Shown here: piece by piece, positions 2,503 to 13,572 of the stretch
How positions within the stretch are numbered: position 1 is the stretch's first letter
Layout of the letters: every line of letters starts with the position of its first letter
NCBI GenBank assembly: GCA_963675915.1
Contig: OY780959.1
Location: forward strand, 1-32,000
Length of the DNA: 32,000 nucleotides
Direction of reading: 5' to 3'
From: Coprobacillaceae bacterium
Lineage (GTDB): Bacteria > Bacillota_I > Bacilli_A > Erysipelotrichales > Coprobacillaceae
The notes under the pieces: generated by a model
What the model was told of the DNA's origin: nothing
Seen by the model: the letters and a program-made list of their open reading frames with translations, nothing else
Database searches by the model: none
Position numbers and translations under genes: made by a program

Positions 2503-3528
2503 TTATGGAGTAATCATTACCGAATTTTCCAGATCAGTAGTAAGATATTCAAACTCTTCCAGGGCGATGTGCCCAGATTCGTACAACCCGCCGTCAATGG
2601 TAAGAATTACCCGGTCGATGGAATAATATCCACCAAAGGTATTGGCAATGCACTGGAGCATCATGGCTTCATAACCGGCTCCAGCGTTCATTTCGCTAAT
2701 GTAGTCGCTACTGAGGTCGATATAGACCATCCCATCTTGATTCAGATAGTACCAGTTGATTTTGGTGTTGGTGGTGAAAACCGGTCCGACACCTTCGGGT
2801 ACGTCATCCTTGTAGGCTTGCTGGAGCACCAGACGGGTAACGTCGTTGGTGTTGAAGGCAATTTCCCGGGACAGATAATAGATATTTCCGTCGTTGATAT
2901 TGGGATAATGGAAGGCGATGTTTTGAACTAACTGAGCATCTTCTTCAATTGAATCCAAAGTCGAGGTTACTTCATATCCGATACCGGTACTGATGGTTTT
3001 AATCAGGCCGACATCTTTGGCATAATAATCAACGCTGGAATAATTGGTTGCTTCAGTTGTCACTTCGATAGCAGAGTAAGTACCTGATCCGGTTTCCAAA
3101 TCAACATCGACAGCAGTTATTGAACGGGTAGAGCCGTCACTAAGTGTCCAGGTTGTTCCCGTTTCAATCGGGCCTTTGAGGAGGATTTCGGAACTTTCAT
3201 TAGTTTTGTCCAGGAAGTTTTCCCGGTGATATGTTTCCCCCTGACTGTAGAGAAGTTTGACCTGATTATCATCGATTCCGATTACTTCCACCATTACCGT
3301 ACCGCCATTGTTGATTCGCAATTGGTATTTGTCAGTTGAGGTATAGTCGATATTGGTCGTATAGGCGGCATATTCATTGCCGTCACCGGAGTAACTGTAG
3401 CTGGTGTTTTCCAAAATCGGGAAATAATCCGCCGCTGAAGTAGCAACGGGATCATCGGTTGACGGGGTACAGGCACTAAGAAATCCGGTAGTTAGAAACA
3501 ATGTGGTTATAATGGATATTTTATTCAT
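2503..3528 (-). CDS. Lipoprotein with one [unknown beta-rich domain + GerMN-like domain] module
   Basis: Signal peptide with lipobox (LTTGFLSAC). The C-terminal half fits the GerMN pattern (FHYPN...TRLVLQQAYK...GPVF..NTKINWYYLNQDGMVYIDLS...AGYEAMMLQCIANTF...V.LTIDGG). SD AAGGAG upstream. Paralogous to the modules of the next gene. Confidence 0.85.
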   Translation of the reverse strand: MNKISIITTLFLTTGFLSACTPSTDDPVATSAADYFPILENTSYSYSGDGNEYAAYTTNIDYTSTDKYQLRINNGGTVMVEVIGIDDNQVKLLYSQGETYHRENFLDKTNESSEILLKGPIETGTTWTLSDGSTRSITAVDVDLETGSGTYSAIEVTTEATNYSSVDYYAKDVGLIKTISTGIGYEVTSTLDSIEEDAQLVQNIAFHYPNINDGNIYYLSREIAFNTNDVTRLVLQQAYKDDVPEGVGPVFTTNTKINWYYLNQDGMVYIDLSSDYISEMNAGAGYEAMMLQCIANTFGGYYSIDRVILTIDGGLYESGHIALEEFEYLTTDLENSVMITP

Positions 3529-3587
3529 TGGGTCATCTCCTTGGTGTTTTCCGGCCGGTTTTTCAACCGAATGGGAAAATGTCTGTT

Positions 3588-6500
3588 TTATAATGCGACC
3601 GAGTCTTCGGTATTGACAGTCAGATATTCGAATCGTTCCAGATAAATATGGCCTGACTCATAAAGCCCCCCATCGATTGTCAGCAAAACGCGGTTGTTTT
3701 GATAATAACTGCCAAAGGTGTTGGCAATACATTGAAGCATCATTGCCTCGTATCCCGAACCAGCGTTCATTTCAGTGATATAATCTTGGCTAAGATCGAT
3801 ATAGACCATGCCATCGCGGTTGAGATAGTACCAGTTGATTTTGGTGTTGGTTGAAAAAACCGGACCAACACCGGCAGGAACGTCCTTATAGGCATTTTGC
3901 AGGACAATTCTGGTGATATCGTTGGTATGGAAACTGATATTCCGGGTTTCAAAATAAATTTTATCATCATTGATATTCGGGTAGAAAAACCGAATATTCT
4001 GAACCAGGGGAGTATCGTACTCTACGGTCTTGAGTGATGAGCTTACTTCGTAGCCTTCACCGGTATTGACCTGTTTTACCAGTCCGATACCTTCGACATA
4101 ATAATCGACATTCTGGTAATTGGCAGCGGAATTGGTAACTTCAATGGCATTATAGCTGCCACTTGGAGTAGTTACATTGGCGGAAACACTGGTGATTGTC
4201 CGGGTTGTTCCGTTGCTTAACTGCCAGCTGGTACCTACTTCGATTGGTCCTTGAAGCAGGATTTCCGAAGTGTTGTTTTTATTTAGGGAATTTTCCCGAT
4301 AGTATGTTTCGGCTTGATTGTAAACGACGGTAATCCGGTTTTCTTCGATATTGAGAACCCGGACAACTTCGGTTCCGGTATTGTTGATTCGCTGTTGAAT
4401 TTTTGAAGCGTTGGTATAGTCTACATAGACATCATAGCCTGCATATTCATTGCCATCGCCTTCATAGACATAGTGAGTATTTTCCAGAATTGGGAAATAA
4501 CTTTGAGCGGTTGTATCGGCCGAATCGACCAATGTTGAAAGATCTTTACAGTCGTCGGTTTTGACATCCAGATATTCAAATCGGCCCAGCGCGATATGCC
4601 CGGACTCATAAAGACCACCGTCGATGGTCAAAACGACATCATTGACCCCGTAATATTCACCGAAGGTATTGGCGACACACCGCAGAATCATGGCTTCGTA
4701 TCCGGCCCCGGCATTCATCTCACTGATAAAAGCCTGATTGAGATCGATATAGGCCATTCCGTCCCGGTTGAGATAGTACCAGTTGATTTTGGTGTTGGCT
4801 GAAAATACCTGTCCCGGCTGGTTTTCAATCTGTTCCTTGTAGGCGTTTTGCAGGATGATTCTGGTGATATCGTTGGTATGGAAACTGATATTCCGGGTTT
4901 TAAAATAAATTTTATCATCATTGATATTCGGGTAGAAAAACCGAATATTCTGAACCAGGGGAGTATCGTACTCTACGGTCTTGAGTGATGAGCTTACTTC
5001 GTAGCCTTCACCGGTATTGACCTGTTTTACCAGTCCGATACCTTCGACATAATAATCGACATTCTGGTAATTGGCAGCGGAATTGGTAACTTCAACGGCA
5101 TTATAGCTGCCACTTGGAGTAGTTACATTGGCGGAAACACTGGTGATTGTCCGGGTTGTTCCGTTGCTTAACTGCCAGCTGGTACCTACTTCGATTGGTC
5201 CTTGAAGCAGGATTTCCGAAGTGTTGTTTTTATTTAGGGAATTTTCCCGATAGTATGTTTCGGCTTGATTGTAAACGACGGTAATCCGGTTTTCTTCGAT
5301 ATTGAGAACCCGGACAACTTCGGTTCCGGTATTGTTGATTCGCTGTTGAATTTTTGAAGCGTTGGTATAGTCTACATAGACATCATAGCCTGCATATTCA
5401 TTGCCATCGCCTTCATAGACATAGTGAGTATTTTCCAGAATTGGGAAATAACTTTGAGCGGTTATATCGGCCGAATCGACCAATGTTGAAAGATCTTTAC
5501 AGTCGTCGGTTTTGACATCCAGATATTCAAACCGGCCCAGCGCGATATGCCCGGACTCATAAAGACCGCCATCGATGGTCAAAACGACATCACTGACCCC
5601 GTAATATTGACCAAAAGTATTGGCGACACACCGCAGAATCATGGCTTCGTATCCGGCCCCGGCATTCATCTCACTGATAAAAGCCTGATTGAGATCGATA
5701 TAGGCCATTCCGTCCCGGTTGAGATAGTACCAGTTGATTTTGGTGTTGGCTGAAAATACCTGACCCGGTTGGTTTTCAATCTGTTCCTTGTAGGCACTTT
5801 GGAGAACAAAGCGGGTGATATCATTGGTGTTGAAACTGATGGCCCGAGATGTGTAATAGATTGTGTCGTCGTTGATATTTGGATAATAGAAGTTGATGTA
5901 CTGGATCAACGGAGTATCTTCTTCGATAGTTTCCAGAGAAGCAGTGACTTCATAGTTTGCCGCGGTGGAGATACTTTTCACCAGTCCGATATCCTTGACG
6001 TAATAATCATGAGTTGTCGAATCCGGATATTCGGTTGTAACTTCGATTGCGGTGTAATTACCACTAGGAGTGGTAACGGCTATAGCCCCGTTGGTGATGC
6101 TACTGGTTACCCCGGCACTTACCGTCCAGGTTGTTCCTACGGCAATGGGACCTTGAAGCAATACTTGGGAAGTGTTGGTTTTATTCAAGGCATTTTCACG
6201 ATAATAAACTTCGCCTTTTTCGTAGACGCAGGTAATTCGGTTTTGTTCAACCTTGATAACTCTGATCATTTCAGTTCCGCCATTGTTGATTCTCAGTTGG
6301 AAGCTGTCTTCATCGAAAAAATCCACATAGGCATCATAAGAAGCATATTCATTTCCGGACCCTTGATAAATGTAATGGACATTGTCAAGAATTGGGAAAT
6401 AATCACTGGCGACGCTTGTCACATCGACATCATTGCCATACTCGCTGATATCCAGGGAATTGATGGTGTCAACTGTCAGATATTCGCCTTCCATGAATGC

Positions 6501-7457
6501 AAAGTGCCCGGATTCATACAGCTCGCCATCAATTGTCAGATTGACATTGTTTACCATATAGTAGGAACCGAAAGTATTGGCGATGCTTTGGAGAATCATT
6601 GCTTCAAAGCCGGAACCGGCATTCATTTCGGTCAAAAATTCCTGATTCAAATCAAGCTTTACGACATCTTCTTCCATCAGATAATATTCATTGATCTGAG
6701 TGTTGGTCGAGAATACCCGGCCCAGTTCCTCAGGATGTTCATCCTTGTAAGCGGCAGCCATAATGGCTCCGGTTATATCGTTGGTACCAAATTCCAAATC
6801 AACTGACTTGTAGTAGTACAGGTCACTTTCAATGTCAGGATAGTATAAATTGACTGTTTTGGTCATCTTGACGTCATTTTCAATCCCAATCAACAATGAG
6901 GAAACCTGCATGTTTTGAGCGAGGTATTCCGTCTTGACTAGACCGATATCCTTGACGTAGTAATCGATAGTTTGATAGTCGAGTCCCTCGGTGGTTACCG
7001 CAACGGCACTGTAATTGGTGTCGGGGGCCTCAACGGTCGTATCGATGCTGGTTATTGTCCTGGTGAGATTGTCTTGAACCGTCCAGGTTGTTCCCACTTC
7101 GATAGGATCTTGAAGCAAGACTTCATTGATTTCGTTTTTGGCCAGGAAATTTTCCCGATAGTAAATTTCGCTTTGTTGGTAGACAAGGCTGACCTGATTA
7201 TCTTCAATTGCGAGCACTTCGACGGTTTCACTGCCCCCGTTATTGATCCGCTGTTGAATGTGGTTGCTGTCATTGTAATCAATATAGACATCAAAAGATG
7301 CATATTCATTTCCTTCGCCCTGGTAAATATAATGGACGTTTTCGAGAATCGGAAAATAGTCCATTGCGGATGTGGTTGTTGGCACATCCGTCACATTACA
7401 CGCTGTTGCGAGCAAGAGAATCAAACTTAACTTGATGACAAAAGTGATTTTTTTCAT
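3588..7457 (-). CDS. Giant lipoprotein (1289 aa) with four tandem [unknown domain + GerMN-like domain] modules
   Basis: Lipobox LLLATAC and SD AGGAG 7 nt upstream. The (D/S)YFPIL(E/D)N module start recurs at 7361, 6404, 5453 and 4502, spaced 957, 951 and 951 nt. Each module ends with a GerMN-like segment. Confidence 0.9.
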   Translation of the reverse strand: MKKITFVIKLSLILLLATACNVTDVPTTTSAMDYFPILENVHYIYQGEGNEYASFDVYIDYNDSNHIQQRINNGGSETVEVLAIEDNQVSLVYQQSEIYYRENFLAKNEINEVLLQDPIEVGTTWTVQDNLTRTITSIDTTVEAPDTNYSAVAVTTEGLDYQTIDYYVKDIGLVKTEYLAQNMQVSSLLIGIENDVKMTKTVNLYYPDIESDLYYYKSVDLEFGTNDITGAIMAAAYKDEHPEELGRVFSTNTQINEYYLMEEDVVKLDLNQEFLTEMNAGSGFEAMILQSIANTFGSYYMVNNVNLTIDGELYESGHFAFMEGEYLTVDTINSLDISEYGNDVDVTSVASDYFPILDNVHYIYQGSGNEYASYDAYVDFFDEDSFQLRINNGGTEMIRVIKVEQNRITCVYEKGEVYYRENALNKTNTSQVLLQGPIAVGTTWTVSAGVTSSITNGAIAVTTPSGNYTAIEVTTEYPDSTTHDYYVKDIGLVKSISTAANYEVTASLETIEEDTPLIQYINFYYPNINDDTIYYTSRAISFNTNDITRFVLQSAYKEQIENQPGQVFSANTKINWYYLNRDGMAYIDLNQAFISEMNAGAGYEAMILRCVANTFGQYYGVSDVVLTIDGGLYESGHIALGRFEYLDVKTDDCKDLSTLVDSADITAQSYFPILENTHYVYEGDGNEYAGYDVYVDYTNASKIQQRINNTGTEVVRVLNIEENRITVVYNQAETYYRENSLNKNNTSEILLQGPIEVGTSWQLSNGTTRTITSVSANVTTPSGSYNAVEVTNSAANYQNVDYYVEGIGLVKQVNTGEGYEVSSSLKTVEYDTPLVQNIRFFYPNINDDKIYFKTRNISFHTNDITRIILQNAYKEQIENQPGQVFSANTKINWYYLNRDGMAYIDLNQAFISEMNAGAGYEAMILRCVANTFGEYYGVNDVVLTIDGGLYESGHIALGRFEYLDVKTDDCKDLSTLVDSADTTAQSYFPILENTHYVYEGDGNEYAGYDVYVDYTNASKIQQRINNTGTEVVRVLNIEENRITVVYNQAETYYRENSLNKNNTSEILLQGPIEVGTSWQLSNGTTRTITSVSANVTTPSGSYNAIEVTNSAANYQNVDYYVEGIGLVKQVNTGEGYEVSSSLKTVEYDTPLVQNIRFFYPNINDDKIYFETRNISFHTNDITRIVLQNAYKDVPAGVGPVFSTNTKINWYYLNRDGMVYIDLSQDYITEMNAGSGYEAMMLQCIANTFGSYYQNNRVLLTIDGGLYESGHIYLERFEYLTVNTEDSVAL
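3908..5796. repeat. In-frame tandem direct repeat, period 951 bp (317 codons), about two copies, nearly identical
   Basis: 3908-4845 and 4859-5796 align base for base at an offset of 951, with only about a dozen mismatches visible by eye (for example 3949 c/t and 4145 t/c). Confidence 0.9.
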
Positions 7458-7915
7458 ATTATCGCTCCTAAACTATTATTTAAACTTTATCGTTATGAGT
7501 TTTAGAAGATGTCTATGATTTAAATGACTGGTATTCAATTGTTAGTAAGCAGGGAAAACCATCGGACATGACGCTCAGGATAATGATTTAAAGTGTAATT
7601 AGCCATTGGTCTTTTGTTGTGACTGGGGATTGTCGTTATTATCAATTGTGTAGATGAAAAAAACAGTGGTTTTATCTACCTAAATTATACCACTAATTAT
7701 TAAAAGATACAGTATTTTATCATTTGTCCGAAACTTTTAGTCCTATTTAGGTATTTTATTCCAAACTGAGGTTATTGGGGATATCATTTAAGCGGTGATG
7801 ATTGAGCCTGAGTTGTATTAATCTCTTGGTTGTGATTTAATTAAAGTAGTAAAGTGGCTAATTGTCACCTAAAGTCAGTACGTCAGTCAGTGATTACTTA
7901 TCGGAGGTGGGTATC

Positions 7916-8497
7916 GTGATTTCAGAAAAATTAAAAATAATCGGCTTACTTATGATTGGCGGGGCACTGGGGGGATCACTGACGGGATGTTCTGGAATCT
8001 CCAGCCGGCTCGACAATGATTATGACCCGGATAAATACTATATTTATGTCAATCCCGAGATGGGCGAATTCAGTGATGTTTCCCAATACGACCAGATGAC
8101 TCATATCTATTTGATGAATTTGGAAATTCCTGACGATTTTGAAAACGAAGAAGAAAAGCTCCATTTGAGCGAGATTTATAATCGGAGTTTCATTGATAAT
8201 AATCAGGAATACAGCTTGGAAATCGAAAAGGCCACTCAATGGGAAAATATTCACTTATATGACCCTGAAGGGAATGTCCTTATTGATTTTGACACTGGAA
8301 CTATTGTCGAGGAAGTCGTGTCAATCGGGATTACCAGTTCAAATTACGAGACCGCGACGACGTCCCAAAATGTGACTTTTACTGAAGAGACCGAACTGGT
8401 GAAGCTGCATCTTATTTTAAATAAAGCAATTGTCGAATATAATTATGAACCGGTATTATATAATTTTAATCTGATTGTCCTGATTGATTTTAAGTGA
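7916..8497 (+). CDS. Small lipoprotein, family shared with 8565-9104 and with the C-terminus of 9579-11345
   Basis: GTG start 9 nt after GGAGGTG. Signal peptide with lipobox SLTGC. The C-terminus VKLHLILNKAIVEYNYEPVLYNFNLIVLIDFK matches the two neighbours. The ORF-track start at 7862 has no SD. Confidence 0.75.
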   Translation: MISEKLKIIGLLMIGGALGGSLTGCSGISSRLDNDYDPDKYYIYVNPEMGEFSDVSQYDQMTHIYLMNLEIPDDFENEEEKLHLSEIYNRSFIDNNQEYSLEIEKATQWENIHLYDPEGNVLIDFDTGTIVEEVVSIGITSSNYETATTSQNVTFTEETELVKLHLILNKAIVEYNYEPVLYNFNLIVLIDFK

Positions 8498-8564
8498 AAA
8501 GTGGCTCAATTCAAAGAAAATGGGCTTTTGGTAGAAATTTCAAACAAAGAGAAGAGGTGGCCAA

Positions 8565-9104
8565 ATGGGTGGCAAGCATACGATGAATTTTATGAAATTG
8601 ATTTTGCCGGTTGTCATCCTGGTTGGTCTTGGTGGCTGTTCAGTTGAAAACGGTTGGGATACAACCAAAGTTTTTGGTTTTTTGGATGAAGCTCCAATGG
8701 AAGCAACGGATATCAGTGATTTTGAGTATCTGGCTGTCTACGATTTGAGTAATGAGCCTGACAGAGCCCCCTTTGATCATCTGGAAATACCTCTTTCCCA
8801 TGCCGGGGAGGGCTATATTTTCAAAATCGAAACTGAGGAACAATGGCCGACATGTTTGTTGTTGAACAATCAACAAGACATTTTAATCGAATATTCCTTG
8901 GTCAATATAATTGATGACCTGATTGATGGAGAGAACGGTTATCAGGTAGGAGATGATTACATTTACCTGGAACATGAATATTCCCGTCAGGAAACCTGGA
9001 ACGATATCACAATGAAGCTCGTATTTTTCCGTGCTACCGTCAATTATAATTACACTCCTCCAAGTTATTCTTTCGAATTTGCGCTATTGCTTGATTTTGG
9101 CTGA
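8565..9104 (+). CDS. Small lipoprotein, paralog of 7916-8497
   Basis: SD GAGGTGG. Signal peptide with lipobox GLGGC. C-terminus ITMKLVFFRATVNYNYTPPSYSFEFALLLDFG. Confidence 0.8.
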   Translation: MGGKHTMNFMKLILPVVILVGLGGCSVENGWDTTKVFGFLDEAPMEATDISDFEYLAVYDLSNEPDRAPFDHLEIPLSHAGEGYIFKIETEEQWPTCLLLNNQQDILIEYSLVNIIDDLIDGENGYQVGDDYIYLEHEYSRQETWNDITMKLVFFRATVNYNYTPPSYSFEFALLLDFG

Positions 9105-9112
9105 TGCTTGTC

Positions 9113-9150
9113 AAAACCCGATTATCCCATAGCAGGTAAATCGGGTTTTT
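9113..9150 (+). terminator. Intrinsic terminator after the lipoprotein pair
   Basis: AAAACCCGATT-15 nt loop-AATCGGGTTTTT. Confidence 0.8.
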
Positions 9151-9540
9151 CCATCAGGAATCTTCTTTAATTCTGATGATATCAAACTGGTCTGTGGTCA
9201 TTTTGGGGCATGATTGAGGATTGTAAGAGCGGAGGAAAATATTTACCACGTGAGTACTAAATTGATAATTTGTAACCGGATTTCTTGAATTTGAGGCCCG
9301 GATATGGTTAAATAAAAGAAAGAGATATAAAGTAATGATTTGATTTATATTGAGAATAAATATTTAACAAATTATGTGTTTGTGTATTAAAATCGAAAGC
9401 AATTATCCCGTTAATAACTCTAAATGTGAGATAATTGTATTTTTATCTTATTTTGAGGTCATCGTGATAGCGGGTCTGAATTATCAACCCATAGTAAACT
9501 CACCTGGAAAAGGTGAAAATATATCCGAGGATGTTTTTTG

Positions 9541-9561
9541 AATAGTTTATGATAAACTATT
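9541..9561 (+). promoter_or_regulatory. Perfect 21-bp palindrome abutting the SD of the membrane-protein gene
   Basis: AATAGTTTA-tga-TAAACTATT, 9-bp arms. It lies 18 nt upstream of the ATG at 9579. Could be an operator or a translational hairpin. Confidence 0.35.
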
Positions 9562-9578
9562 ATGAAAGGATGATATCG

Positions 9579-11345
9579 ATGAACAATCTATCGAAAGTAT
9601 TTGATCGTCTTAAAGGCTTGACCAAAGCAATCATTCGTTATCCGTTGACTGAGGCAATCCTGGTGGCGGCGGCAATCTTGAACACAATCGCCATCAATAC
9701 GACATTCGAATATGAAAAAGAGTTGCTGTCCTTGTTGGTTGGAGCGGTTTTGACCGCGACTTTGCAAGGTGTCTATGAACGTTTTTTCACCAAGGATCTC
9801 TACCGTTTCGGTTTGATGATTCTAGGGGCCTTGTTGACCTTTGGATATTATCTGATTTTACTTAGAGCTCCGGAATTATCAGTTGAAATCATGGTTAGAA
9901 CCCTGGTGGCCTTGTTTGCCCTGCTGATTGGGTATATCTGGGTGCCGGTTATCAAGAGCAATACTGATTTCAATGCGAGTTTCATGGCGGTTTTCAAGGC
10001 GTTTTTCCAGACTGTCCTGTACTCAGGTGTGTTATATGGGGGCGTGAGTCTGATCATTTTCGCAATCAATTATTTGATTGTTGAAGTCAGTGGTAAGGCA
10101 TTTGCCCACAGTGCTAATATCGTATTTGTGCTTTTTGCACCGCTGTTCTTCTTTTCTCTGGTGCCGGTTTTCCTTGGGGAAAGACATAAGGATCTCGGGA
10201 CCGAGGAACTTGAACCCCTTGAAGCAGCGATAGCCAAAGCAACTTATTGCCCGAGATTTCTGGAAATTCTGATTTCCTATATCATCGTGCCGGTTGCGGC
10301 TGTTTACACCGTGATTTTGGTTTTATATATCGGACTTAATGTGACCGGAAGTTTCTGGTCGCGAAATCTGATGGAACCTTTGCTGGTAAGTTATGCTATT
10401 GCCGTAATTCTGGTCTACATCCTGTCGAGCACGATTGACAACAAGTTTGTCAATCTGTTCAGAATGATTTTCCCGAAAGTGCTGGTTCCGGTAGTGTTGT
10501 TCCAGATTGTCTCTTCATATCTTAATCTTGGCAATACCGGGATTGTCCATACCAAATACTATGTCTTGCTTTTTGGAGCATTCGCGGCGTGTTCCGGAGT
10601 GGTGATGAGTATCTTCCCACCTAAACGAAACGGAATTATAGCCGGATTGTTGATTGCTTTTGCTTTGGTGTCGATAGTCCCACCGGTCGATGCCTTCACT
10701 GTTTCGAAAAACAGTCAGATCAATATGCTTGAAGCAGCTTTAAAAGCCAATGGAATGCTGGAAGATGATGAAATCATTCCCAATGGAAATGTGAGTGAAG
10801 ATGATCGGATTAGAATCTCTCAATCGGTATCATATCTCTACAATATGGGTTATCTCGACCAACTTTCTTTCATGCCCGGAGACTTCAGAATGTACAGTGA
10901 TTTCTTCGATACATTTGGCTTCAATGAGTATTATGATTCTGATTATCCAAACGGAGAATTCCGTGATTTCTATGTTAATTATGATTATTCAAGACCTTTT
11001 GATGTATCGGGATACAATTTTGTTCGGACTTTGAGCCTGCATGAAGAAGGATATTTCGAGTCGGCGAATTTCACTGACGGCAGTGAAACATATCACTTCG
11101 AACTTGAAGGTATGAATCTGGTTTTCATGGACAAGGCCGGCAGCGTGGCGATTACTTTCAATCTCGATAAAATTATGACCGAAGTCGAAGCGATGCCAAA
11201 TGGGATGTTTAGCGAAGAAAAATCATTTGAAGCTGAAAATGATGTTGTCAAAGTAAAACTTATCCTGACAAATGCGCAAATTATGTATTATGGCGCTGAT
11301 CGCTCTTATTATGTGGACTTCTTTGTTGCGGTCAAATTCAAATAA
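9579..11345 (+). CDS. Polytopic membrane protein (about 11 TM, DUF4153-like from memory) with a ~220-aa C-terminal extracytoplasmic domain
   Basis: Start chosen at the ATG 8 nt after AAAGGA; the 9549 ATG lies in the loop of the palindrome. Eleven hydrophobic segments. The C-terminal soluble region ends VVKVKLILTNAQIMYYGADRSYYVDFFVAVKFK, like the two lipoproteins. Confidence 0.85.
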   Translation: MNNLSKVFDRLKGLTKAIIRYPLTEAILVAAAILNTIAINTTFEYEKELLSLLVGAVLTATLQGVYERFFTKDLYRFGLMILGALLTFGYYLILLRAPELSVEIMVRTLVALFALLIGYIWVPVIKSNTDFNASFMAVFKAFFQTVLYSGVLYGGVSLIIFAINYLIVEVSGKAFAHSANIVFVLFAPLFFFSLVPVFLGERHKDLGTEELEPLEAAIAKATYCPRFLEILISYIIVPVAAVYTVILVLYIGLNVTGSFWSRNLMEPLLVSYAIAVILVYILSSTIDNKFVNLFRMIFPKVLVPVVLFQIVSSYLNLGNTGIVHTKYYVLLFGAFAACSGVVMSIFPPKRNGIIAGLLIAFALVSIVPPVDAFTVSKNSQINMLEAALKANGMLEDDEIIPNGNVSEDDRIRISQSVSYLYNMGYLDQLSFMPGDFRMYSDFFDTFGFNEYYDSDYPNGEFRDFYVNYDYSRPFDVSGYNFVRTLSLHEEGYFESANFTDGSETYHFELEGMNLVFMDKAGSVAITFNLDKIMTEVEAMPNGMFSEEKSFEAENDVVKVKLILTNAQIMYYGADRSYYVDFFVAVKFK

Positions 11346-11466: not shown

Positions 11467-13572
11467 ATGGTAAATAATCAACTGTTTATGCGGCTTAGAT
11501 TATTGTCTACCCAGGATACCAATCAAGTCCATATGTTCAGCTCAATTATTGACACAATTGGAAAAAGCCTCGATCTTTCCCGAGTCAGAGTATTTTTAAA
11601 CAATAAGAAATCCAATCACACCAAATCGATTGCCACCTGGGGACCGGAAAGATACCAGGGCGTCGAGCTTGATAATGAAGAATTGAAGGGAGTATATCAC
11701 CTGCTTTCCCAAAATGTGGTAATTGAAAAAGAAAAAATCGAGGAAATTTCAGGTCCGGTCTGGAATCGTCTCAACCTTGACGGAGCTGGTCCGGCAATAA
11801 TTTATCCGATTGCAAGTTCTGGAATTGTCTGGGGTTTTATTGCCTTTGCGGCAGAATCAAAAAGTCGGGAATTTGGAGTTGAGGATCGTGAAGTCTTCGA
11901 TTTTGCTGCCAAATTGATTGCCAGCAGCCTTGATTATCAAGAAAATCAAGTTGCCTCGATTCAAAGCTGTCGGAGCATTTTCGAACGTCTTGATCAGTTT
12001 GTGATTGTCTGGTATAAAAACGGAGAAATAATTTATGGCAACCAGTATATCTGCGACCTGTTGGAATATACAAGTCGGAATCTGATAAGTCACAATATTA
12101 ACGATATCACCAGAAATATTTTTGACACTAAAAGCAACAGTCCGATGGAATCGATTGCAACCGAAGACGACTGCAATGTTTCTTTGGATCTGGTTGGCAA
12201 TGGCCGGGAAACAATTTCCGCTGAGGGGCAGATCATGTCAATGACCTGGGAACACATCCATTACTCAATTGGAGTTTTCAAAAAAGTTTCTTTCCATCAG
12301 GATGAACTGATGATGTTTATCAAGATGTTCAAAAACAATCCGTCGCTGATCGCGCTGGTCAGTTTACCGGATCTCAAGTTGATTGATGCAAACATCTCTC
12401 TTGAGGATAAAACCGGTTATGGTCTGGAAGAACTCAAAGGCAAACCACTTTATCGAATCCCGCTTTTCACCGAGTCCAAAGATTATTATCCGGTGCTTGA
12501 AAAGATTGTCGAAGAGCGTGAAGCCAAAGATATCGAAATCGAGGTTCACTGCAAAAACGGCAGTATTCTTGAGGGGCTTTTTTCAGCTGAAATTATTTCC
12601 CACAAGGGCCGGGAGTATGTTTTGATGGTCTTGGTCGACATTTCCAAACAAAAACAGATTCAGGCCTTGTACGGGGAGGAAAGAAAACGCCTTAACAGTA
12701 TTATCGAGGGAACCCGTCTGGGAACCTGGGAATGGAATATCCAAACCGGGGAAATTGTTATTAATGACCGATGGGCGAATATGTTGGGCTATGATCTGGC
12801 CGAACTCGAGCCGATTTCAATTCAGACCTGGACCGATTTGATGCACCCGGATGATTTTAAGCGAAGTGAAGAATTGCTCGAACGTCACTTCAAAGGGGAA
12901 ATAAACTTTTATGATATCGAATGCCGCCTGCGTCGTAAAAACGGGAGCTGGCTTTGGGTTCATGATCGCGGTAAGGTGATTGATTGGGACTCTCAAGGAA
13001 ATCCTTTGATGATGTATGGAACTCATTCGGATATTAACAAAAAAAAGGAATTTGAAAAACGGATCAATGAGATCTCCATTAGAGATCCGCTGACCAATAT
13101 CTACAACCGGCGCTTCATTTATGAACAGTTGGAAAAAGATCTGGAACGATATAAACGCAACAATATGCTTTGTTCGGTAGCGATTCTGGATATCGATTAT
13201 TTCAAGGGAATCAATGACCGCTTCGGTCATCTTGCCGGCGATTACATTCTCAAGGAATTCACTTTGCTGATAAGTGAAAATCTGCGTGATTATGATTTGC
13301 TGGGACGATATGGCGGCGAAGAGTTCATTATCATCATGTACGACAGCAACCGCCGTGATTCGGCAACGATTATCGAAAGAATCCTGGATATAACCCGTGA
13401 GAAAAAATTCCACTACAATGGCAATGAAATAAGTTTCACCTTTAGCGCTGGAATTGCCGATATCTCCGAATTCACCCAAACTGATCTGACCAACGAAAAA
13501 ATAATCTCGCTGGCTGATCAAAGGTTGTATGCTGCCAAACAGAGTGGTCGCAACAAGATCATTTTTGACTAA
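11467..13572 (+). CDS. Cytoplasmic GAF-PAS(x3)-GGDEF diguanylate cyclase
   Basis: SD GGAGG. GGEEF at 13312-13326. RDYD (RxxD I-site) sits exactly 5 residues upstream at 13285-13296. Also DIDYFKGINDRFGH, RLYAAKQSGRN and the PAS signature GTWEWN...WANMLGY. No TM segments. Confidence 0.93.
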   Translation: MVNNQLFMRLRLLSTQDTNQVHMFSSIIDTIGKSLDLSRVRVFLNNKKSNHTKSIATWGPERYQGVELDNEELKGVYHLLSQNVVIEKEKIEEISGPVWNRLNLDGAGPAIIYPIASSGIVWGFIAFAAESKSREFGVEDREVFDFAAKLIASSLDYQENQVASIQSCRSIFERLDQFVIVWYKNGEIIYGNQYICDLLEYTSRNLISHNINDITRNIFDTKSNSPMESIATEDDCNVSLDLVGNGRETISAEGQIMSMTWEHIHYSIGVFKKVSFHQDELMMFIKMFKNNPSLIALVSLPDLKLIDANISLEDKTGYGLEELKGKPLYRIPLFTESKDYYPVLEKIVEEREAKDIEIEVHCKNGSILEGLFSAEIISHKGREYVLMVLVDISKQKQIQALYGEERKRLNSIIEGTRLGTWEWNIQTGEIVINDRWANMLGYDLAELEPISIQTWTDLMHPDDFKRSEELLERHFKGEINFYDIECRLRRKNGSWLWVHDRGKVIDWDSQGNPLMMYGTHSDINKKKEFEKRINEISIRDPLTNIYNRRFIYEQLEKDLERYKRNNMLCSVAILDIDYFKGINDRFGHLAGDYILKEFTLLISENLRDYDLLGRYGGEEFIIIMYDSNRRDSATIIERILDITREKKFHYNGNEISFTFSAGIADISEFTQTDLTNEKIISLADQRLYAAKQSGRNKIIFD

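Follow-up and report, generated by a model that had tools for sequence, protein, structure and literature searches.

Two adjacent lipoprotein genes of a Coprobacillaceae bacterium contain five copies of a barrel-GerMN module

Two lipoproteins built from a repeated two-domain module

The locus described here lies in a stretch of 32,000 nucleotides (nt) from a Coprobacillaceae bacterium (assembly GCA_963675915.1, contig OY780959.1, positions 1 to 32,000), to which we refer as the window. Two adjacent genes on the minus strand each encode a lipoprotein. The large one has 1289 amino acids (aa), is encoded by the open reading frame (ORF) at positions 3588-7457 and consists of four modules of two domains each, with Pfam matches to Germane (four times) and DUF3108_like. 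The small one has 341 aa, is encoded by the ORF at positions 2503-3528 and contains a single such module, as judged from its Pfam Germane match of 43.5 bits and from structure modelling with AlphaFold2 (AF2). Both N-termini show a short basic part followed by a hydrophobic stretch and a lipobox (LLATAC in the large protein, FLSAC in the small one) that ends in Cys20. These signal peptides, comprising residues 1-20, are encoded on the minus strand at positions 7398-7457 (MKKITFVIKLSLILLLATAC) and 3469-3528 (MNKISIITTLFLTTGFLSAC), respectively. The lipobox cysteine is invariant across 50 homologs and at least 90% conserved across 111. Lipidation is predicted for both products and would hold them on the outside of the cytoplasmic membrane; the bacterium is Gram-positive and Erysipelotrichaceae/Coprobacillaceae-like. 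These features agree with an earlier note on this DNA, in which two adjacent minus-strand genes for lipoproteins of these lengths had been described.

The five modules, all on the minus strand, were delimited by alignment and, in the small protein, also with the AF2 model. Module B1 comprises aa 33-351 of the large protein (positions 6405-7361), with the barrel domain at about 6870-7361 and the GerMN domain plus linker at 6405-6869. Module B2 comprises aa 352-668 (5454-6404; barrel at 5913-6404, GerMN domain plus linker at 5454-5912). It is followed by module B3 with aa 669-985 (4503-5453; barrel at 4962-5453, chimeric GerMN domain at 4503-4961), which is the extra, duplication-derived module discussed below, and by module B4 with aa 986-1289 (3591-4502; barrel at 4011-4502, GerMN domain at 3591-4010). 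Module S1 corresponds to aa 34-341 of the small protein (2506-3429; barrel at 2935-3429, GerMN domain at 2506-2934). A scan for the motif [DS]YFPIL[ED]N placed the starts of the modules at 7361, 6404, 5453, 4502 and 3429, exactly where they had been placed before. The module lengths are 319, 317, 317, 304 and 308 aa, and the pairwise identities over the full length range from 51 to 89%. At the DNA level the repeat has a period of 951-957 base pairs (bp); it was found with an offset-identity scan, and Tandem Repeats Finder with its maximum period of 500 reported nothing. This five-module repeat is far beyond chance. The earlier estimate of a module of about 318 aa is borne out by these lengths, but the N-terminal domain comprises about 168 aa rather than the proposed 190 or so. 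The recurring motifs that had been listed as RINNGG(T/S)E.V, YYREN, GP(I)E(V)GT.W and DYYV..IGLVK were each found in the module alignment (as RINNGGTE, YYREN, GP.E.GT.W and DYYV..IGLVK).

The AF2 model of the whole small protein, which was built on 50 homologs, has a mean predicted local distance difference test score (pLDDT) of 92 and a predicted template modelling score (pTM) of 0.84. In this model, an all-beta domain (about aa 31-198) precedes an alpha/beta domain, and the pTM value indicates that these domains have a defined arrangement relative to each other. The building block of both proteins is thus a compact two-domain module, in which an all-beta DUF3108/YmcC-like barrel of about 168 aa is followed by an alpha/beta GerMN domain. 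The linkers between the modules are short, acidic and rich in Ser and Thr. The linkers after B2 (5454-5510) and B3 (4503-4559), with the sequence DDCKDLSTLVDSAD.TAQ, contain one cysteine apiece, and cysteines are rare elsewhere in the mature large protein. The large protein may form a string of beads that is exposed on the surface, as the earlier note had proposed.

Identity of the two domains

Hidden Markov model (HMM), sequence profile and fold all identify the C-terminal part of each module as a true GerMN domain. The Pfam model Germane (PF10646; cut-off 23) matches the large protein with 144.9 bits in four stretches, the best of which is aa 204-312 in module B1, and the small protein with 43.5 bits. 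In Foldseek searches the GerMN half matched 6gzb, 6gz8 and 5j7r with E-values of 4e-5 to 6e-4; the alignments with 6gzb span about 140 columns at a root mean square deviation of 3.3-4.5. By sequence profile, 6gzb was retrieved with an E-value of 1e-5. The previous assignment of this segment to GerMN, made from the sequence pattern, was therefore correct. The invariant motifs EMNAG and YESGH are family-specific and have no counterpart in GerM or 5j7r.

The N-terminal domain had been described as one that could not be named, and this view did not hold. The Pfam model DUF3108_like (PF21347) reaches 36.6 bits in the large protein when summed over the modules, compared to a gathering cut-off of 27, with a hit at aa 693-812. 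Both PF21347 and PF10646 are already listed in the Pfam annotation precomputed for the closest relative. The AF2 model of the barrel alone (pLDDT 95.5, pTM 0.90) has, according to DSSP, 12 strands and a single helix of 4 residues. In Foldseek searches of this model against the PDB, with template modelling (TM) scores normalised to the query, the best matches were the DUF3108-like proteins 4fvs (TM 0.55, E 3.8e-5) and 3fzx (TM 0.52, E 6.7e-5), both with a probability of 1.00. YmcC was also among the structural neighbours, and LolA, LolB, MucB and LprG were found at TM 0.30-0.39 with probabilities of 0.85-0.96. The same picture emerged when the model of the whole small protein was compared with the PDB, as its N-domain led to 4fvs and 3fzx and its C-domain to 6gzb, 6gz8 and 5j7r. 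A phmmer search of the PDB with the small protein gave nothing relevant. We therefore regard the module protein as related to DUF3108_like by structure and only marginally by sequence, and its N-terminal domain as a divergent DUF3108/YmcC-like barrel with a remote resemblance to LolA. The link is mainly structural, and the solved structures were reached by fold comparison only. A match of the N-terminal domain to a well-characterised family of known function would have refuted the earlier reading; the family to which the Pfam and fold searches led, DUF3108_like, is itself of unknown function.

The single-module lipoprotein is widespread in Bacillota

Searches with the small protein yielded 456 homologs with E-values of at most 1e-3, and nearly all of the best 120 of these were 330-390 aa long and 45-60% identical to the query. 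Those that have a name in the databases appear as 'GerMN domain-containing protein', as 'spore germination protein GerM' or as 'Lipoprotein LpqB, GerMN domain protein'. When one genome per species was considered, 530 stretches encoded a relative, and the 80 listed were essentially all from Bacillota. The hosts include Bacillaceae (Bacillus, Neobacillus, Niallia), Clostridium and many other Clostridia, Desulfosporosinus, Pelotomaculum, Acetobacterium, Christensenellaceae (Christensenella), Oscillospiraceae, Oscillibacter and Erysipelotrichaceae. A profile of the barrel matched 1,281 clusters among 1.84 billion representatives, 239 of them with E-values of at most 1e-30; almost all of the best 150 of these matches were 330-400 aa long, with a single barrel near the N-terminus. 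A GerMN domain (Germane) was present in 108 of 111 barrel-containing representatives, and the fusion of the barrel to GerMN thus appears to be obligatory. Across hundreds of species of Bacillota, a lipoprotein of about 350 aa with a single module is the normal form of the protein. Together with the 108 of 111 co-occurrence, this supports the view that the didomain is the unit of these proteins, as had been proposed from the separate single-module paralog. The taxonomic survey of architecture and copy number that had been called for likewise showed the single module to be the rule, and multi-module forms to be confined to a few relatives.

In rare variants, the didomain is preceded by SLH, ChW, Cu_amine_oxidN1, or PrcB_C / DUF3221 domains. 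Among the proteins concerned, P0137, P0079, P0228, P0187 and P0260, the additions are three SLH domains, three ChW domains, Cu_amine_oxidN1, or PrcB_C with DUF3221. One rare variant carries an FAD-dependent oxidoreductase at its C-terminus, possibly through a fusion of gene calls. Since SLH, ChW and Cu_amine_oxidN1 are typical of cell-wall-associated proteins, these architectures support a role of the module outside the cytoplasm. About 50% identity is kept between Bacillota classes of very different habitats, and the conserved positions, which lie in both domains, are mostly Tyr, Trp, Glu, Gln, Arg, Asn and Asp. Invariant are Y46, G48, G50, E52, Q69, R71, R102, W127, Y168 and Y169 of the barrel as well as T227, N228, D271, E287, T297, Y316, S318, G319 and H320 of the GerMN domain.

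The earlier note had raised the possibility of a distinct, uncharacterised family. No family model was found in NCBIfam, our literature search found no publication on a barrel-GerMN family, and the paper that founded the GerMN domain described single, tandem, GMAD1, GMAD2 and amidase architectures, with barrel-GerMN not among them (PMC2732212). To this extent the idea of a distinct family stands. Its novelty was nonetheless overstated, as both domains are in Pfam (PF21347 and PF10646), the proteins are already annotated as GerMN domain-containing proteins, and the count of five modules is the result of an expansion within one clade plus a single strain-specific duplication.

Evolution of the array

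Among the matches listed, genes with more than one module were found only at four related loci and in two metagenomic proteins, P0125 and P0126, which have two modules each. The loci are L001 (972 aa) from the nearest strain, L002 (977 aa) from an Erysipelotrichaceae metagenome-assembled genome (MAG), L003 (975 aa) from a Coprobacillaceae MAG, and L081, and at all four the one-module paralog lies next to the multi-module gene. A distance tree separates the modules of this clade from those of single-module outgroups, which points to a lineage-specific expansion. The large gene ancestrally had three modules, and its fourth is a recent duplication. At L081, the three-module gene (6833-9771) was called as fragments of 386, 463 and 74 aa, which long-read indel errors or a pseudogene would explain. 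Separate tandem single-module genes, as considered for P0003, P0012 and P0102 on one contig, were ruled out because L081 shows a three-module gene broken by frameshifts beside the small paralog.

The recent duplication occupies positions 3889-5804, where two copies in tandem (3889-4853 and 4840-5804) are 98-100% identical at an offset of 951 bp. The copies differ at 18 positions, of which 10 are synonymous and 8 non-synonymous, and the junction is exactly in frame. The breakpoints fall inside a GerMN-coding segment, so that the GerMN domain of B3 is chimeric; its barrel is 99% identical to that of B4, and its GerMN domain is 92% identical to that of B2. Module B3 is missing from the 972-aa ortholog of L001, the flanks of which are about 97% identical to the window, and the lengths account for each other precisely (972 + 317 = 1289). 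In addition, the barrel of B4 is 100% identical at the amino acid level to that of module 3 in the L001 ortholog. The fourth module arose in this strain by unequal recombination between two GerMN-coding segments.

It could be argued that the assembly has over-expanded the repeat and that the real gene has three modules, so that the fourth would be an artefact, especially as three is also the number in the nearest strain and in every other relative, and as the two copies share 98% identity over 951 bp. This is very improbable in view of the 18 synonymous and non-synonymous differences between the copies and the in-frame junction. Moreover, the contig is a chromosome-scale assembly of 2.63 Mb, and the product of the large gene is identical to a public database protein, P0275, on that contig.

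For every module, the ratio of non-synonymous to synonymous substitution rates (dN/dS) between the window strain and L001 is 0.06-0.16. Both genes are therefore functional and under purifying selection, and do not contain diversifying repeats; a diversifying selection of the kind seen in adhesins was ruled out by these values of about 0.1. When the region 3588-7457 of the window was compared with L001 10001-12919, the synonymous rate (dS) was found to be a mosaic, with values of 0.11-0.26 for modules 1-2 but of only 0.02-0.03 for the small gene and modules 3-4, as would be expected if recombination or gene conversion had taken place within the locus. Altogether, we consider the anatomy of the two proteins and their evolutionary history, as set out above, to be well established.

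Transcription unit and genomic context

The spacer between the two genes measures 59 bp (3529-3587, minus strand), and the terminator scan reported no terminator-like site in it. The large and the small gene therefore probably form a bicistronic unit that is co-transcribed. A candidate promoter of the sigma-A type was recognised at 7684-7723 on the minus strand by a consensus scan and by reading of the sequence, that is, by consensus matches only. Its extended -10 element, TGgTATAAT (7692 to 7684), lies about 230 nt 5' of the ATG of the large gene, which is preceded by the ribosome-binding site AGGAG (7469 to 7465) as read from the same sequence. From this promoter, the large gene would have a leader of about 220 nt. 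Because of a neighbouring gene for a GGDEF protein, a riboswitch for cyclic di-GMP (c-di-GMP) was suspected in this leader, but the idea was rejected: Rfam gave no significant match, and the fold of the leader, with a z-score of 0.47, is no better than that of shuffled sequence.

All-against-all clustering of the ORFs at 79 loci of the family revealed no conserved neighbour. The recurrent neighbours were only generic ones, namely ATP-binding cassette (ABC) ATPases, GGDEF proteins, major facilitator superfamily (MFS) transporters, methyl-accepting chemotaxis proteins (MCPs) and P-type ATPases. No same-strand neighbour within 80 bp was present for 54 of 75 single-module genes, and the single-module gene is thus usually a stand-alone, monocistronic gene. 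Upstream of 72 family genes, neither WalR boxes nor the B. subtilis-type consensus sequences for sigma E, F, G and K were enriched. In the window, the neighbouring genes encode a phosphotransferase system (PTS), a PAS-GGDEF protein and a DUF4153-like protein, and no two-component system or sporulation genes were seen near the locus.

Within the clade only (the window, L001, L003 and L081), a DUF4153-like membrane protein and the PAS-GGDEF protein are conserved divergently upstream. The latter is of the diguanylate cyclase type and is encoded at 11467-13572 on the plus strand, in synteny with the locus. In about 17 of 80 related loci, GGDEF proteins are encoded within 6 kb of the family gene; this rough, approximately twofold enrichment is at most weak, and we do not rely on it. 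Two small lipoproteins (7862-8497 and 8565-9104, plus strand) share a domain with the C-terminal 150 or so aa of the DUF4153-like protein, a multi-pass membrane protein (9549-11345, plus strand). This domain has no match in Pfam, is related by BLAST E-values of 6e-9 and 2.5e-5, and has the common ending ..NYNY.P..Y.F.....DF. The two small lipoproteins were found elsewhere only in L001, and the DUF4153-like protein also in L003 and L081.

Lastly, an insertion sequence (IS) of the ISL3 family is located at 206-2480, which is not present in the closest relative, L001. It carries, on the plus strand, a DUF6431 ORF (453-866) followed by the DDE_Tnp_ISL3 transposase ORF (935-2353), and on both sides of it (198-205 and 2481-2488) the 8-bp sequence CTGACTTT is present as a direct repeat. 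The insertion point lies about 15-22 bp 3' of the stop codon of the small gene, in what appears to be the terminator hairpin of this gene (arms at 174-190 and 196-212). A strong terminator-like hairpin is present within the IS end itself, on the minus strand at 2355-2390.

Comparison with known systems

The module protein is a member of the GerMN family, but it is neither an ortholog of GerM nor LpqB, nor a demonstrable carrier of the LolA type. It shares the GerMN domain with GerM of Bacillus subtilis (6gzb, 6gz8) by HMM, profile and fold, and like most GerMN proteins it is a lipoprotein. GerM, however, consists of two GerMN domains in tandem, has no barrel and functions as part of the SpoIIIA-SpoIIQ complex during sporulation, whereas in the module protein each GerMN domain is preceded by a DUF3108-like barrel and a link to sporulation was not found. 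LpqB of Actinobacteria is likewise a lipoprotein in which GerMN is joined to an all-beta domain. In that case the all-beta domain is a GMAD1 beta-propeller (PF10647) located after GerMN, and the gene adjoins mtrAB; in the module protein the barrel comes before GerMN, Pfam gives no match to PF10647, and no two-component system was seen nearby.

The best fold matches of the barrel, BDI_3050 (4fvs) and BF2203 (3fzx, 'YmcC-like fold'), are also exported proteins or lipoproteins of unknown function. They differ in being single-domain proteins of Gram-negative Bacteroidales that have only about 10-12% identity to the barrel and are not fused to GerMN. Other membrane-tethered beta-barrel lipoproteins of bacteria that lack an outer membrane are GerS, the activator of CwlD, and SsdC, both of the PLLLF superfamily. 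They provide a precedent for such a fold as a partner of the wall-remodelling machinery instead of a carrier. Yet they have no GerMN domain, are sporulation-specific and were not among the top 50 structural matches listed per query, so that their resemblance to the module is one of functional analogy only.

Possible functions of the module

Given the GerMN domain, a factor that is made during sporulation and acts on the forespore envelope or the cortex, like GerM, GerS or SsdC, has to be considered. Many of the hosts form spores (Bacillus, Neobacillus, Niallia, Clostridium, Desulfosporosinus, Pelotomaculum), the characterised monoderm LolA-like lipoproteins GerS and SsdC are sporulation proteins, and some sources label homologs as 'spore germination protein GerM'. 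We nevertheless regard this role as unlikely. The family also occurs in Acetobacterium, Christensenella and Oscillibacter, genera that are generally regarded as non-sporulating, and the tandem GerMN-GerMN arrangement of GerM lacks the barrel. In addition, the 72 upstream regions were not enriched in sporulation promoters of the B. subtilis type, the window gene has an extended -10 element resembling that of sigma A, and no sporulation genes were seen in its vicinity in the window. The barrel itself rather brings to mind carriers of lipids, glycolipids or lipoproteins, such as LolA, LolB, LprG and LppX. As such, it would hold acyl chains and take a lipid-anchored envelope molecule off the membrane, for example a lipoteichoic acid anchor or an undecaprenyl-linked precursor, and the tandem array would serve as a relay. 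LolA, LolB, LprG, MucB and YmcC are indeed structural neighbours, with Foldseek probabilities of up to 0.96, and the protein is a membrane-tethered lipoprotein. Still, a carrier function seems improbable with TM scores to LolA-type proteins of merely 0.30-0.39 and with a predicted barrel that has no alpha-helical lid or plug (one 4-residue helix in DSSP). The conserved residues are chiefly polar or charged, unlike those expected of a greasy lining, and monoderms have no outer membrane to which lipoproteins could be delivered.

The tandem repeats with a copy number that varies between strains (three versus four), the short acidic linkers rich in Ser and Thr, and the PAS-GGDEF gene that is conserved nearby in the clade would also be compatible with a surface adhesin, in which the repeats bind an external substrate or host ligand and their number tunes the reach or evades recognition. 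The strong purifying selection on every module (dN/dS 0.06-0.16) makes this quite improbable, and so does the finding that the protein as a rule has a single module, which would stay near the membrane and beneath the wall. The identity of about 50% between classes of Bacillota across habitats fits an endogenous, conserved target better, and Rfam detected neither a c-di-GMP riboswitch nor any other in the leader.

The mechanism that we favour instead is that the module would act as a non-enzymatic binding or scaffold unit in the wall space. Its target may be peptidoglycan, a secondary wall glycopolymer, a lipid-linked precursor or a wall-remodelling enzyme (cf. GerS-CwlD), and recognition would rely on polar and aromatic residues in both domains that are strongly conserved and specific to the family. 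Arranged in tandem, the modules would increase the valency and place binding units further away from the membrane, into the thick wall. A conserved endogenous component of the envelope is suggested as the target because about half of the residues are kept between classes from very different habitats. That the module binds or scaffolds is suggested by the predominance of Tyr, Trp, Glu, Gln, Arg, Asn and Asp at the conserved positions, and by the proposal that GERMN is a binder of envelope carbohydrate (PMC2732212). A scaffold role is furthermore in line with the monoderm LolA-like lipoproteins, as GerS activates the amidase CwlD and SsdC is a second example of such proteins that work on wall enzymes or on the assembly of the cortex and do not serve as carriers (bioRxiv 10.1101/2025.01.13.632879).

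Several observations weigh against this proposal. No ligand, partner or phenotype is known for the barrel-GerMN family or for DUF3108-like proteins, which means that we infer the functional step of the module. The conserved residues, as placed from alignments, may or may not come together in one pocket or in the cleft between the domains. In its GerMN half, the barrel-GerMN family has invariant Ser-Gly-His, Asp and Glu residues that are restricted to it, and these could point to catalysis or the binding of a metal instead of passive binding. The link of the barrel to DUF3108_like also has its weak points: PF21347 passes its cut-off only when summed over the modules of the large protein, the single-module small protein gives no match, just 22 of 111 relatives match with E-values of at most 0.01, and an hmmsearch of the PDB with the barrel profile retrieved nothing relevant, neither 4fvs nor 3fzx. 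A wall-space unit for binding or scaffolding a conserved envelope component, made multivalent by the tandem array, is accordingly to be seen as a possibility rather than a probability. The explanation as a whole, which combines the anatomy, the amplification and this wall-space role, is the best one at present, and we would give it not quite an even chance of being right.

Implications for the biology of the envelope

GerMN is among the most widespread envelope domains with an undefined molecular role, and DUF3108-like barrels are equally uncharacterised. The barrel-GerMN family, being an obligatory fusion that is conserved, single-copy and monocistronic, offers a tractable handle on what either domain binds, and the series of one, three and four modules in close relatives represents a natural valency series. 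More speculatively, and with considerable doubt on our part, the didomain, with about 1,300 clusters at 50% identity, may be an unrecognised envelope factor that operates throughout the Bacillota in vegetative cells. A composite, highly conserved polar site to which both domains contribute would then bind a core component of the wall or control a wall hydrolase, in the way that GerS controls CwlD, and the tandem forms would be multivalent scaffolds or rulers spanning the wall. If the module does control wall remodelling, the GerS-CwlD paradigm would reach beyond sporulation; otherwise, the locus would still document well how a module has recently been amplified in frame within an ordinary gene for a lipoprotein.

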